This document shows positions 1 through 4,362 of a DNA stretch of 32,000 nucleotides, piece by piece. The position numbers were made by a program, and so were the translations under genes. The notes under the pieces are model-generated. The model made no database searches. It was not told the DNA's origin and was given only the letters and a program-made list of their open reading frames with translations. Every line of letters starts with the position of its first letter. The stretch's first letter is position 1. The DNA comes from Candidatus Hermodarchaeota archaeon (GTDB taxonomy: Archaea > Asgardarchaeota > Heimdallarchaeia > Hodarchaeales > Hodarchaeaceae): assembly GCA_048886185.1 (NCBI GenBank), contig JBHLKY010000003.1, forward strand, positions 30,001-62,000. The letters run 5' to 3'.

Positions 1-1731
1 TTTTGGAGAGCCTCTGTTAAAATTTCTACCGTGGAAGACCCTTTATTTTTAGATTGGAAAGAAAATCCAATAAAAGACGAAAAAATCATTAATTCCTTAA
101 TTTCTAAACTGAATAGAACTGCAGAAGGAATTATCACTGATTATAATGAAGAGTCAGCAACTATCAAGCGGCCTCTTCCATTAGACACCGATACTCTTGA
201 AGCGGAATGTGCTCAGTTCTTTAGAATCAGTCCCAAACAAGTTGCAGACATTGCTGAGAAATTATATAATAATGGTCATATCACCTATCCTAGGACAGAG
301 AGCTCTTTTTATCTTGAAAAAGACCTGACTAAATTAGCAGAGAAGTTTATTTCACATGATGAGTTTGGGTCTGTTGCTAAAGAGTGCATTGAGCTGGGGG
401 GTACTAAAAATCCCAGCAAAGGGAGATTTACAAAAGATCATGAGCCAATAAAGCCAGTTAAGGCATCAAAACAACCTGAAATTGAAAAAATATTTGAAAA
501 AACACCTGCAATAGCAAATCTAGCATGGAATATCTATTCATACATTGTTTGGAGATTCTTAGCTACCGTTCACTCTGATGTGGCTATAGTGAATCAATAT
601 ATTATACTTAGTAGTGCATCTGAAGAATTCTATGCTAAGGGACGAAAAATCGTCGATTTAGGGTATTTAAGCTTCTATAAATTCAAAAGAGTAACGGGTA
701 AAGTGCTACCTCCATTAGAGAAAGGGAGTAAGCACACTATTGAAGCCTTTAAACATCAGGGTTACACAACTCCACCTCCATTATGGAGTGAATCTCAATT
801 AATCCGAGAAATGTCAGCATTAAACCTAGGAACTGATGCAACACGCTCGACTCACATTGATACTGTTCAAAAACGGATGTACACAACAAATAGAGGATCA
901 AGGAGACTGTTAGAACCTACCAGTTTAGGAATGGCGCTCTATCACATATTTACAGAAAACGCTGAAGATCTGATTCTTCCCGAAATTCGAGGGAAAGTTG
1001 AATCTTGGACCCAGCAAATCAGAGACCACGAAAAAACTCCAGAAGATGTTGATAAGCTTGTGATTGAGTTGACAACTCATAGCTTGCAGAAAATGAAGGG
1101 AAATCAGGAGGAAATTTTTTCGACTCTAGTTCAAAGCATTGAGACAATGACGGGGATTGGTAAAACTTTTGGAATTTGTCCTGAATGTCAGGGAGATCTT
1201 GTTCTCCATCAGGGAAAGGGAAGCTCACGATTCTTGAAATGCTCCAATTCTCTGTGTAAAATAAGTCTTCCCTTACCAAAAAAAGGAGATTTGTCGGCAA
1301 TCGAGGGTGAAAATTGTCGTATCTGTAACGCGACTCCTCTTTTGGTTACATCTCAATCATACAATTGGATCATGTGTCCTGTTTGTTGGACAGGAAAGGC
1401 AGTAGAAGATCATCCATGGTTTTGCACAGAGTGTACCCGAACTGATTGTCCTTTCTCTGGCTCATGGGAAACTAATTCGCCTGGACAGTCTCTAGGGAGT
1501 TGTTCTGAATGCGGAGGAGACGTTCTCTTAAAATTTGATCAACAGGATACTCAAGTAATGTGCTCCAAGTGTAACCGAACTTGGAAAGCACCCAATCTTC
1601 GTAAGGGAACAACAGTTACTCCCAGTGATCCCTGTGAGAATTGTGGGCGCCAAACATTGTTTATTGCAAAACGAGGAAAAAAACCATACCGTTTATGCGT
1701 GTTCTGCTCCCTTTTCTTTTTCCAAGAGTAG
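1..1731 (+). CDS. Type IA DNA topoisomerase (Top3-like), 5'-truncated, with multi-zinc-finger C-terminal domain
   Basis: Frame is open from base 1. Catalytic Tyr motif GHITYPRTES, DHEPIKP, LGTDAT and LEPTSLG are present, followed by a series of CxxC pairs in the last ~190 aa. Confidence 0.95.
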   Translation, partial: FWRASVKISTVEDPLFLDWKENPIKDEKIINSLISKLNRTAEGIITDYNEESATIKRPLPLDTDTLEAECAQFFRISPKQVADIAEKLYNNGHITYPRTESSFYLEKDLTKLAEKFISHDEFGSVAKECIELGGTKNPSKGRFTKDHEPIKPVKASKQPEIEKIFEKTPAIANLAWNIYSYIVWRFLATVHSDVAIVNQYIILSSASEEFYAKGRKIVDLGYLSFYKFKRVTGKVLPPLEKGSKHTIEAFKHQGYTTPPPLWSESQLIREMSALNLGTDATRSTHIDTVQKRMYTTNRGSRRLLEPTSLGMALYHIFTENAEDLILPEIRGKVESWTQQIRDHEKTPEDVDKLVIELTTHSLQKMKGNQEEIFSTLVQSIETMTGIGKTFGICPECQGDLVLHQGKGSSRFLKCSNSLCKISLPLPKKGDLSAIEGENCRICNATPLLVTSQSYNWIMCPVCWTGKAVEDHPWFCTECTRTDCPFSGSWETNSPGQSLGSCSECGGDVLLKFDQQDTQVMCSKCNRTWKAPNLRKGTTVTPSDPCENCGRQTLFIAKRGKKPYRLCVFCSLFFFQE

Positions 1732-1950: not shown

Positions 1951-4362
1951 ATGAGTACAGAAACCCTAGAAAAGGACCCTGCGCCATCAGCAATTCGTTA
2001 CCTTGTATTAGCAAGCGCTTTCACTTGCTTAATAACAGCTATCTCCTTTGTTCAAGCTCAAATTGGCACAAGTACTCAGGAGGAGCAATTTTACCAAGGT
2101 GCCTTTTTAGGGTTTACTCTTGTCTCAGGCGTCACCCTGATAGAATGGTTCCTTCTTAGGCGCTCACGAAAAATGATTGGACCATATGGCATAACGATTA
2201 TGCTGGAAGTTATTAAAACTGTATTATTCAGTATAGCTACAACTGAATATATTCAAACTGTTTCTGGAAGCTCTTCTGATCCCTTTTTCCTCCACCGCCT
2301 TCTTTCTCTCGGTACTCTCTTCTTACTTGCATTAACCAAGGTTGCTCGTACTAGAATTGATCAACTTGCTCAGAGGGAAATTAGCAGAAATATATTGAAC
2401 CTTTTACCCACAATTCTAATCGCTGCTTTATTCTTGGGGACGTATGTTACAGAAATTGCGGGATTAGGAACTCCAAGACAACGGAGTAGTTTTGAAGATT
2501 ATACGGACAAATACTATGATTGGGAACTATACAATACACCTACATGGGATGCTACGTATCTCCTAGAAAATCTACTGGATCAGTTTACTGCAGGAATCCA
2601 AAATCCTTACGATGTCCTATTTACTGTAAGAAGTGATAATTCAGATCCAACTTCACCTCCAGCTTATTGGCGTCTAGGTAGCCTTGGTACTTATGAATTC
2701 TTTAATAAAGGTGACGATCCCACTACAAGATGGACTTCTACAGATCCAGGTTATCGGGAATTAACTCCTAGTCCATCGGTGAATAGTTATTCGCAAAGAA
2801 TTGACGCTTCTGAGAGAGCAGCTCGTTTTACTGTCCGAGTTCCCCTAGATCATAGTGATTCTATTGCAGATGTGTCTGTGAATCCAAGCTTTGTTAATCA
2901 TCTCCCTACAACTTGGAACGGGGAGGATGGCTCTTTCGTTGACGCTGTGTCCTTTAAGCTGTATGATGCTTTAGAAAATGAGTTAACTCCCACAACAACA
3001 AAGACCCAAGAGATTTATCCTGTGAATTATGCCGCATTTAGAGATTTAAGGGGGATTTATGCCGATATCAGGGGAGTTGAGACATCTTCAGAAGAAGGGA
3101 TCCTTGAGTACACCATGGATTACAAGGATATATCTAATACTCTTTATGACGCAGCAATTTTTTCTAGAACCAAGTCTGAATACTTAAGTTGCTTGAATAA
3201 TGATCTAATAGCTTGGAACGATATAAAAGATCTCTACTTACATTTACCAAACACTTCATCAGAATTACCATCCACTGCATATGTTTCAGGCATTGGAACC
3301 ATTTCCAATCCACAAGTATACTCTGACTGGGCTCCTGAAGTAGTAGCTGCAGCCGATACCTGCACTATAGAAGGTCAGACTGTTTTCTCTCAAGCCTATG
3401 CTGAAATGTTGAGACTTGCTCCCAATTCTTACTTAAATACTCAATTGACTCAAATTCCTGGACTTGGAGTAAGTCCAGACCCCCAAGAAGATCCCGATTC
3501 TACTGGAGAATATGACCTTATATTTGACTTTGACATGTGGCTAGGAAACCAAAATCCGTTACAGCCCATGGCCCATCCAAGAGCATATGAGGATTATAAT
3601 GAATGGTTCATGGTTAATAAAAACGGTGTTTCCCTTCATTTTGCTTCACTCTTCGTTACTTTAATGCGCTTACGGGGAATTCCAAGTCGTGTAGTAATAG
3701 GTTATTTAGGAGGCCAAAATTCAGAAGATAATACCAGACGAGAAATTACTAATATGATGCTCCATGCTTGGGCAGAAGTCCTGATTCCCATCAGAGAAAT
3801 TCTTCCAGTCGAGCCTTTTATCGATAAACGAGTAGAATGGGTCAGCTTTGATCCTCTCCTTAAATTCTTGTCAGATAGACTTCAGATTGGTACTCCTCTG
3901 GACATGCCAATTCTATCACAAGTAGCGAATACTGTTTTTATTGGATCTGATGTTGACTACCAAACAATCGGACCTGAGGCTCTCCCCGCGCCATCTTATG
4001 TTACCACAAACGTTTCTGGAGTTCCTGGAGTCCCTAAGATTATTAGCTTTCAAGAAACGATTAACCTCTCTGTTCGTATAATGATGATCACTAGCCCTAC
4101 CACCTGGATGCCCTGGCAACCAGGGTGTGAGTACCTCATGACAAATGTTACATTTTATTGGGGAAACTCTCGAGATATAAACTCTGCAACACCAATCCAA
4201 GATTCCAGTATCGATGGTTCTGGTTACGCAAGCTGTATATTCCCGTATAGCATCTTTGATCATGGAGATACCGTTTGGTTCTTTGCTGAAGTCATATTTG
4301 ACGAAGGTGAACCGCAAGAGGTGGTTAAAACAACCAGATCTGTGAAACACAGTATCTCTTAA
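1951..4362 (+). CDS. Membrane-anchored transglutaminase-like (TgpA-type) domain protein; nucleophile position is Ser
   Basis: N-terminal hydrophobic helices, then GVSLHFA..LMRLRGIPSRVVIGY, HAWAEV and WVSFDP, matching the TGc core layout. Confidence 0.8.
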   Translation: MSTETLEKDPAPSAIRYLVLASAFTCLITAISFVQAQIGTSTQEEQFYQGAFLGFTLVSGVTLIEWFLLRRSRKMIGPYGITIMLEVIKTVLFSIATTEYIQTVSGSSSDPFFLHRLLSLGTLFLLALTKVARTRIDQLAQREISRNILNLLPTILIAALFLGTYVTEIAGLGTPRQRSSFEDYTDKYYDWELYNTPTWDATYLLENLLDQFTAGIQNPYDVLFTVRSDNSDPTSPPAYWRLGSLGTYEFFNKGDDPTTRWTSTDPGYRELTPSPSVNSYSQRIDASERAARFTVRVPLDHSDSIADVSVNPSFVNHLPTTWNGEDGSFVDAVSFKLYDALENELTPTTTKTQEIYPVNYAAFRDLRGIYADIRGVETSSEEGILEYTMDYKDISNTLYDAAIFSRTKSEYLSCLNNDLIAWNDIKDLYLHLPNTSSELPSTAYVSGIGTISNPQVYSDWAPEVVAAADTCTIEGQTVFSQAYAEMLRLAPNSYLNTQLTQIPGLGVSPDPQEDPDSTGEYDLIFDFDMWLGNQNPLQPMAHPRAYEDYNEWFMVNKNGVSLHFASLFVTLMRLRGIPSRVVIGYLGGQNSEDNTRREITNMMLHAWAEVLIPIREILPVEPFIDKRVEWVSFDPLLKFLSDRLQIGTPLDMPILSQVANTVFIGSDVDYQTIGPEALPAPSYVTTNVSGVPGVPKIISFQETINLSVRIMMITSPTTWMPWQPGCEYLMTNVTFYWGNSRDINSATPIQDSSIDGSGYASCIFPYSIFDHGDTVWFFAEVIFDEGEPQEVVKTTRSVKHSIS

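Follow-up and report, generated by a model that had tools for sequence, protein, structure and literature searches.

The window analyzed here, a 32,000-nt stretch (contig C3:30001-62000) of a Candidatus Hermodarchaeota genome (Hodarchaeales, Asgard archaea) of 4.84 Mb that is 96% complete, begins within a gene that probably encodes a working Top3-family type IA enzyme of the small prokaryotic clade closest to the common ancestor of eukaryotic TOP3A and TOP3B. The initial annotation had proposed an archaeal type IA topoisomerase and, more specifically, a Top3beta-type ortholog. The family assignment was borne out by a Toprim domain, a Topoisom_bac core and the catalytic Tyr345, whereas the assignment to TOP3B did not hold: the Hodarchaeales enzyme is best seen as a cousin of the TOP3A/TOP3B common ancestor, not as an archaeal TOP3B.

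The open reading frame is cut by the left edge of the window and ends with a stop codon at positions 1729-1731; all of the strings quoted in the initial annotation (LGTDAT, LPLPKKG, CPVC, CTECTRTDC, GSCSEC, CSKCN, CENC and CVFCSLFFFQE) were found in frame 1. The complete gene has 825 codons with a GTG start (L001:754-3231 on contig C3). It starts 747 bases upstream of the window, with residues 1-249 encoded at C3:29254-30000, and its product is identical to the 825-aa protein record P0003. Pfam searches yielded two matches above the cut-off, namely Toprim (PF01751, residues 7-165, E = 5.5e-10) and Topoisom_bac (PF01131, residues 183-599, E = 4.7e-84). The acidic Toprim residues, which lie in the upstream part outside the window, are intact (E10 in AEKPS and D134/D136 in TDWDGHGE). 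Both marks of a type IA enzyme, Toprim together with the Topoisom_bac core and the tyrosine motif together with the acidic Toprim residues, were thus found. The gene is intact, with its domains and catalytic residues present, and the latter suggest that the product would act as a topoisomerase on DNA. The neighboring genes (an AAA_18 kinase-like protein, a transglutaminase-like membrane protein, UbiA, ATP-grasp_5, HTH and GlmS) revealed no functional link to the topoisomerase. The features within the window are summarized in Table 1.

Table 1. Features of the topoisomerase gene, in coordinates of the window
Feature	Position	Strand	Remark
Type IA topoisomerase gene, 3' 576 codons and stop (residues 250-825)	1..1731	+	Frame 1 open from the first base
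Topoisom_bac catalytic core, part in the window	1..1050	+	Pfam PF01131, residues 183-599
Catalytic Tyr345 codon, motif ITYPRTES	286..288	+	Opposite ISYPRTE of human TOP3B
GTDAT motif, residues 526-530	829..843	+	Motif comparison across Topo III/TOP3
Two-helix linker from core to zinc tail, residues 600-641	1051..1176	+	Model helices at tail positions 2-17 and 19-34, pLDDT about 75-95
Predicted metal site 1, C4: C642, C645, C663, C668 (CPEC ... CSNSLC), then conserved LPLPKKG	1177..1257	+	
Predicted metal site 2, C4: C688, C691, C708, C711 (CRIC ... CPVC)	1315..1386	+	
Predicted metal site 3, C3-type: C724, C727, C732 (CTECTRTDC)	1423..1449	+	Opposite CNECTHPSC of human TOP3B
Predicted metal site 4, C4: C750, C753, C770, C773 (CSEC ... 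CSKC)	1501..1572	+	
Predicted metal site 5, C4: C794, C797, C815, C818 (CENC ... CVFC)	1633..1707	+	

The core is followed by a tail of ~190 aa, in which 19 cysteines that are invariant within the close clade make up five sites of the types C4, C4, C3 (CxxCxxxxC), C4 and C4. The arrangement of these cysteines suggests that the tail binds metal. The protein terminates 7 residues after the last CxxC, that of site 5, and carries no RGG box, in agreement with the initial annotation. We compared 34 tails from all groups that possess the full set of sites, and found that 14 cysteines were invariant and 4 more were nearly so; the sole varying knuckle cysteine was the second one of site 2 (tail C92), which is Asp in TOP3B. 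An AlphaFold model of the tail based on these 34 diverse sequences reached a pLDDT of 84. In a fold search with the model, the only significant matches were E. coli Topo I and the human TOP3B-TDRD3 complex, with low global TM-scores (0.17-0.38) because the ribbons are arranged as beads on a string. We took this search to confirm only that the modeled tail would be a type IA topoisomerase zinc-ribbon array.

We compared the protein with all solved chains using phmmer. Human TOP3B was the first match (3.2e-66), followed by TOP3A (5.4e-63; PDB 4cgy), to which the core is equally close, whereas the matches to E. coli TopA (1e-33), Sulfolobus Topo III (2e-32) and E. coli TopB (1e-20) were far weaker. 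The alignment with human TOP3B covered sites 1-3 and stopped only where the solved construct ends, and no other solved chain was aligned into finger 3. When the tail alone (residues 630-825) was used as the query against the solved chains, nothing significant was obtained; this result says nothing about homology, because the solved TOP3B chains all end at or before residue 718. In a large protein collection, the next full-length matches after the enzyme's own clade were eukaryotic TOP3B proteins with 97-99% query coverage, including those of Cryptosporidium, Ulmus, Albugo and Galdieria. The Ulmus protein (P0236) is a genuine TOP3B (6.8e-263 to human TOP3B versus 1.7e-120 to TOP3A); its BLASTP alignment with the archaeal protein was collinear (residues 4-822 versus 6-818, E = 2e-75) and kept the five Cys motifs in register throughout. 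Judged from these alignments, the likeness to TOP3B is not due to chance.

The claim that the tail follows the motif order of TOP3B was accordingly upheld, with five sites in register with real eukaryotic TOP3B. Among the human motifs given in the initial annotation, CPYC and CNECTHPSC were right, whereas YTLPQNG reads YTLPNNG in PDB 9cah. Solved human chains end by residue 718, and the positions of the distal tail motifs were confirmed in TOP3B proteins of plants, apicomplexans, oomycetes and others. The archaeal enzyme shares with TOP3B (PDB 9cah and 5gve) the Toprim and Topoisom_bac core, the GTDA motif, the catalytic tyrosine, the order and spacing of the five Cys-rich sites (among them the C3 site, an unusual type), the LP.(K/Q/N).G motif that follows site 1 and a similar total length (825 versus about 830-870 aa). 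However, several differences were also observed. Site 2 of the archaeal protein begins with CxxC, whereas all sampled TOP3B proteins have CxxD or a similar non-Cys residue; in human TOP3B, the D1C3 metal site at finger 2 holds C666 (PMC12585913). TOP3B continues into RG-rich stretches, whereas the archaeal protein has no extension past site 5. The Pfam family PF23546 (Zn_ribbon_TOP3B), which covers the first zinc ribbon of TOP3B, did not match the archaeal protein at E<=1, although it was found in P0236 and P0235.

We further analyzed the tail by profile searches. A word-based search gave matches in Asgard proteins only. An exhaustive profile search gave full-length matches in two Hodarchaeales clades, Njordarchaeia, the orphan metagenomic protein P0053 and Naegleria, and most of its matches were limited to fingers 1-2. 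The Naegleria match is an ortholog of TOP3A (1.7e-206 to human TOP3A), not of TOP3B. In profile-profile comparisons, the tail was aligned with eukaryotic TOP3B over 184 columns (98.1%), with protist TOP3A over 189 columns (97.9%), with Njordarchaeia Topo III over 196 columns (99.2%) and with P0053 over 189 columns (99.0%). The alignment with Loki-type Asgard Topo III covered 116 columns, corresponding to fingers 1-3 only, but was very strong (99.5%, E = 6e-23). Weaker or shorter matches were obtained with the second type IA enzyme of the same genome (77 columns, 97.4%) and fish TOP3A (90 columns, 60.5%), and that with E. coli TopA was not meaningful (21 columns, 23.3%). A mixed TOP3A profile (fish, fungal and protist) was matched at one finger only, whereas protist TOP3A alone was matched over the whole tail. 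Because its match to TOP3B is no fuller than its matches to protist TOP3A and Njordarchaeia Topo III, the tail should be regarded as an older, shared feature that is not specific to the beta type.

The Naegleria TOP3A proteins P0126 and P0138 likewise possess all five sites of the tail; their site 2 is of the C4 type, and the end reads CVFC. TOP3A carries GRF zinc fingers (PF06839) after the Topo zinc ribbons, which were detected in P0240 and P0126, whereas the archaeal protein gave no match to this family. Only part of the tail is left in animal TOP3A, and none in fungal Top3.

These profile results bear on the possibility that the enzyme is an ordinary archaeal Topo III, and that its likeness to TOP3B reflects only generic zinc ribbons that all look alike. 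The strong match of fingers 1-3 with Loki-type Topo III and the predominance of matches to fingers 1-2 are in line with this possibility, as is the Pfam search, which recognized in the tail only a weak Zn_ribbon_Top1 (residues 641-676, below threshold). Nevertheless, the alignment with TOP3B is collinear over five sites and the LP.P..G motif, and the zinc tail of E. coli TopA gave no meaningful profile match. Ordinary Asgard and archaeal Topo III proteins (e.g. the enzyme's own paralog and Sulfolobus Topo III, PDB 6k8n) belong to the same family and have the same catalytic residues; their tails share fingers 1-3 in the Loki type and all five sites in Njordarchaeia, but are mostly shorter (about 130-190 aa). 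The initial annotation had named two outcomes contrary to its own reading, a tail equally similar to generic archaeal zinc ribbons and a core grouping with ordinary archaeal Topo III. The first was found in part, in that fingers 1-3 fit ordinary Asgard Topo III better than TOP3B, whereas the core stands apart, as described below. We therefore consider it extremely improbable that the enzyme is merely an ordinary Topo III.

To place the catalytic core, we constructed trees from the region equivalent to residues 1-600. The sequences comprised both Hodarchaeales clades, eukaryotic TOP3B and TOP3A, the second type IA gene of the same genome and its relatives, Topo III of other Heimdallarchaeia and Asgard archaea, Nitrososphaerota proteins and E. 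coli TopA and TopB; the eukaryotes were represented by a small sample of 10 TOP3B and 8 TOP3A, with no human sequences. A quick tree of 92 rows and a careful maximum likelihood tree of 50 rows (LG+C20 PMSF) were obtained, the latter omitting near-duplicates and the long or unplaced rows L011, P0262, P0267, P0261, P0263, P0259, P0265 and P0266. One of these rows, P0265, was considered as a reverse gyrase, and this identification was rejected.

In the careful tree, TOP3A (100/100) and TOP3B (100/100) were each other's sisters with support of 100/100, and the archaeal clade fell outside them. The Hodarchaeales clade (100/100) was joined by P0053 (93/90), and both together were sister to TOP3A and TOP3B jointly with moderate support (93/84). 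Nitrososphaerota enzymes were placed next to this assemblage, in a clade supported at 100/99. The core clade is hence not purely Asgard, as it also contains the Nitrososphaerota enzymes and the orphan P0053, for which no close relative was found among 400 Asgard genomes at E<=1e-120. The quick tree recovered the same clades in an unsettled order, as a four-way polytomy. In AU tests on the 50 rows, a tree in which the Hodarchaeales enzyme was forced together with TOP3B was rejected (dlnL 42.9, p-AU 0.001), as was a tree in which it was forced together with ordinary Asgard Topo III (dlnL 41.6, p-AU 0.007).

The distribution of a short motif agreed with these clades. GTDA(S/T), which occurs as LGTDATRS at residues 525-532 of the archaeal enzyme, is common to TOP3A, TOP3B, P0053 and Nitrososphaerota, exactly the clade supported at 100/99. 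All other Asgard Topo III proteins, including the paralog in the same genome, carry GTK(S/A) at this position; the corresponding motif is GTEA in E. coli TopB and GRPS in TopA. The earlier suggestion that GTDA is typical of eukaryotic Top3 is thus valid in a wider sense, in that the motif marks the eukaryote-type Top3 clade with Nitrososphaerota and P0053 included, and it sets the enzyme apart from ordinary Topo III.

These results also bear on the possibility that the enzyme is a true archaeal ortholog of TOP3B, in which case the TOP3A/TOP3B duplication would have occurred in archaea and this gene would be the beta copy. The ranking of human TOP3B among the solved chains and of eukaryotic TOP3B after the own clade favors this view, and the genome does contain two type IA genes. 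However, the second gene, which encodes a 755-aa protein on contig C17, falls among ordinary Asgard Topo III proteins instead of beside TOP3A, and its motif is GTKS in place of GTDA. In addition, TOP3A and TOP3B together exclude the Hodarchaeales enzyme, the protist TOP3A tail fits equally well, and the RGG box, the D1C3 site and a match to PF23546 are all missing. An archaeal TOP3B is therefore very improbable, and we retain the interpretation of a cousin of the common ancestor.

We investigated the distribution of the enzyme in 400 Asgard genomes. The full tail was present in 20 of the 21 genomes of the enzyme's own family and in both genomes of a sister family of the same order. It was also present in one distant genome, where according to the tree it is of the Njordarchaeia type, and the remaining proteins had fingers 1-2 or 1-3 only. 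The eukaryote-type enzyme with the full tail is thus confined to Hodarchaeales (22/23 genomes sampled), and it was absent from the other Heimdallarchaeia families in this survey. Hodarchaeales genomes typically contain two type IA genes, one for the full-tail enzyme and one for an ordinary Topo III paralog of ~690-775 aa, whereas other Heimdallarchaeia mostly contain a single type IA gene of a third type.

The absence from other Heimdallarchaeia is equally compatible with a gain by transfer and with loss. The kinship to eukaryotic Top3 might therefore be real but due to horizontal transfer instead of vertical descent, either from a proto-eukaryote that preceded the TOP3A/TOP3B duplication to the ancestor of Hodarchaeales, or from a Hodarchaeales-like or other archaeal donor to the eukaryotic stem. 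That the enzyme is an extra gene alongside the ordinary paralog, and that its clade includes Nitrososphaerota proteins, would accord with such an event, and transfers of this kind around eukaryogenesis have been argued for in PMC12395588 and PMC12680538. However, the eukaryotic proteins are monophyletic (100/100) with the archaeal clade outside, and hence any transfer must be older than the LECA duplication. The gene is also order-wide and tree-like within Hodarchaeales: in both trees, the other Hodarchaeales sequences form a grade within which the genus-level clade is placed, as expected under vertical inheritance inside the order. Furthermore, Njordarchaeia Topo III combines an ordinary core with the five-site tail, which argues that the tail is native to Asgard archaea. 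Although a transfer deserves to be taken seriously, we consider it rather unlikely, and the descent into eukaryotes may have been vertical, from a Hodarchaeales-like ancestor.

The likely activity of the enzyme can be outlined from its family. Tyr345 would cut one single nucleic-acid strand with Mg2+ held by the acidic Toprim residues, a second strand would go through the protein-bridged gate, and the break would then be resealed. The C-terminal chain of five small zinc ribbons may hold the single-stranded substrate beside the catalytic center, in the manner of E. coli Topo I and human TOP3B. The substrate would be single-stranded DNA, possibly also RNA. Type IA enzymes across all of evolution are able to use RNA in vitro (review PMC10969213); because of this general ability, RNA activity is possible for the archaeal enzyme but would not be diagnostic of TOP3B.

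The five-site tail is probably an old feature of Asgard Topo III that predates the TOP3A/TOP3B split. It would have been kept in TOP3B and some protist TOP3A and shortened in Loki-type Topo III, whereas in animal and fungal TOP3A it would have been remodeled (GRF fingers) or lost. Eukaryotic TOP3B would later have gained the RGG box and turned site 2 into D1C3.

RMI1 and TDRD3 bind their TOP3 partners through an OB fold of the RMI1_N/DUF1767 type. A search of the 96% complete genome for this fold (PF08585) gave no match, and a divergent partner would escape such a search. With neither an RGG box nor an RMI1_N/DUF1767 match, nothing in the sequence argues for a role on mRNA. More speculatively, the tail could be an ancestral module for guiding nucleic acids, such that the Hodarchaeales enzyme already acts on RNA or R-loops in addition to DNA, for which we see a small chance. 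If this were true, the dual DNA/RNA role of TOP3B would be older than eukaryotes, and the pair of type IA genes in Hodarchaeales would represent an archaeal division of labor that foreshadows the TOP3A/TOP3B split without being homologous to it.

A recent study described a eukaryotic Top3 clade related to Top3 of the 'Heimdall clan, Sifarchaeia and Wukongarchaeia' (PMC12680538, 2025, legend of Extended Data Fig. 4f). The relation is stated there at the level of a tree, with an extra, polyphyletic Top3 copy in part of the Asgard archaea branching next to a eukaryotic Top3 clade, and Top3 is regarded as a probable case of HGT. The 'Heimdall clan' Top3 is very probably the same clade as the Hodarchaeales enzyme; the text of that study does not describe the zinc tail, the comparison with TOP3B and TOP3A, GTDA as a marker or the confinement to Hodarchaeales. 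None of the reviews on archaeal or type IA topoisomerases consulted here describes an enzyme of this kind. Our addition is thus a modest one, consisting of the homology and polarity of the tail, the use of GTDA as a marker and the finding that the enzyme is limited to Hodarchaeales.

The Hodarchaeales enzyme may serve as a concrete prokaryotic stand-in for the eukaryotic Top3 before its duplication, and it implies that the ancestral C-terminal domain was retained by TOP3B, not by TOP3A. Under this interpretation, human TOP3B would have derived its disease-linked D1C3 site (C666) from an ordinary C4 site, and eukaryotes would have added the RGG box. The gene is one more for which Hodarchaeales are the nearest archaeal relatives, and it bears on the debate on the position of eukaryotes among Heimdallarchaeia, which it does not settle because it is a single gene for which transfer is possible. 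As a small, mesophilic and RGG-free archaeal protein, the enzyme could also be a more convenient model for studying how the zinc tail guides DNA or RNA substrates.

The C-terminal tail with five predicted metal sites appears to be older than the split between TOP3A and TOP3B. Direct evidence is provided by P0126 of Naegleria gruberi, a TOP3A ortholog that retains a TOP3B-like five-site tail at residues 643–850, in which site 2 is C4 and the end reads CVFC, followed by a GRF finger.

The tail and the core do not always occur in the same combination. In the Njordarchaeia-type Topo III, represented by the proteins P0098 and P0118 and by locus L008 (contig C155 of another Asgard genome, G286), the five-site tail is complete, yet the core is that of ordinary Asgard enzymes with the motif GTKS. 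This combination suggests either that a long tail was the ancestral state of Asgard Topo III, or that the histories of the tail and the Top3-like core are partly separate. The short type IA topoisomerases of Nitrososphaerota (P0243–P0251; 589–597 aa) contain GTDA and belong to the clade (100/99) that includes eukaryotic Top3 and the Hodarchaeales enzyme, and they lack any zinc tail. In the core tree, the sister of the Hodarchaeales clade (93/90) was P0053, an orphan protein of 851 aa encoded on a metagenomic contig of 160,940 bases, which has a complete five-site tail followed by one additional CxxC at the terminus. A search of 400 Asgard genomes (E ≤ 1e-120) found no close relatives of P0053.

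The source genome encodes a second type IA topoisomerase, with two Zn_ribbon_Top1 repeats and the motif GTKS. In the core tree, this paralog formed one group (100/100) with short enzymes from a different Heimdallarchaeia family, and the Loki/Thor-type Topo III was the sister of that group. The kinase-like gene and the main topoisomerase gene diverge from each other, with 13 bases between the former and the start of the latter; no functional connection of the downstream transglutaminase-like protein to the topoisomerase gene was evident.

Coordinates of the second topoisomerase gene and of the genes flanking the main one
Feature	Location	Strand	Length	Position
AAA_18 P-loop kinase-like gene	L001:135-740	-	201 aa	upstream of window
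Predicted membrane protein, transglutaminase-like core	window 1951-4362	+	803 aa	directly downstream of topoisomerase gene
Second type IA topoisomerase gene, G000	C17:103377-105641 (L003:1015-3282)	+	755 aa	

Among metagenomic proteins, P0265 (1115 aa), P0266 and P0259 join a Top3 core to DEAD/ResIII helicase domains. Their domain architecture resembles that of reverse gyrase, and the core is of the TOP3B type, with the motifs GTDAS and LWLDCD, and was placed on the eukaryotic TOP3B side in the 92-row tree. Four long metagenomic proteins of the TOP3B clade (P0253, P0254, P0256 and P0257; 1144–1274 aa) carry approximately 300 residues of added N-terminal sequence, and in at least P0253 the tail is RG-rich and remains alignable despite substitution of most cysteines.
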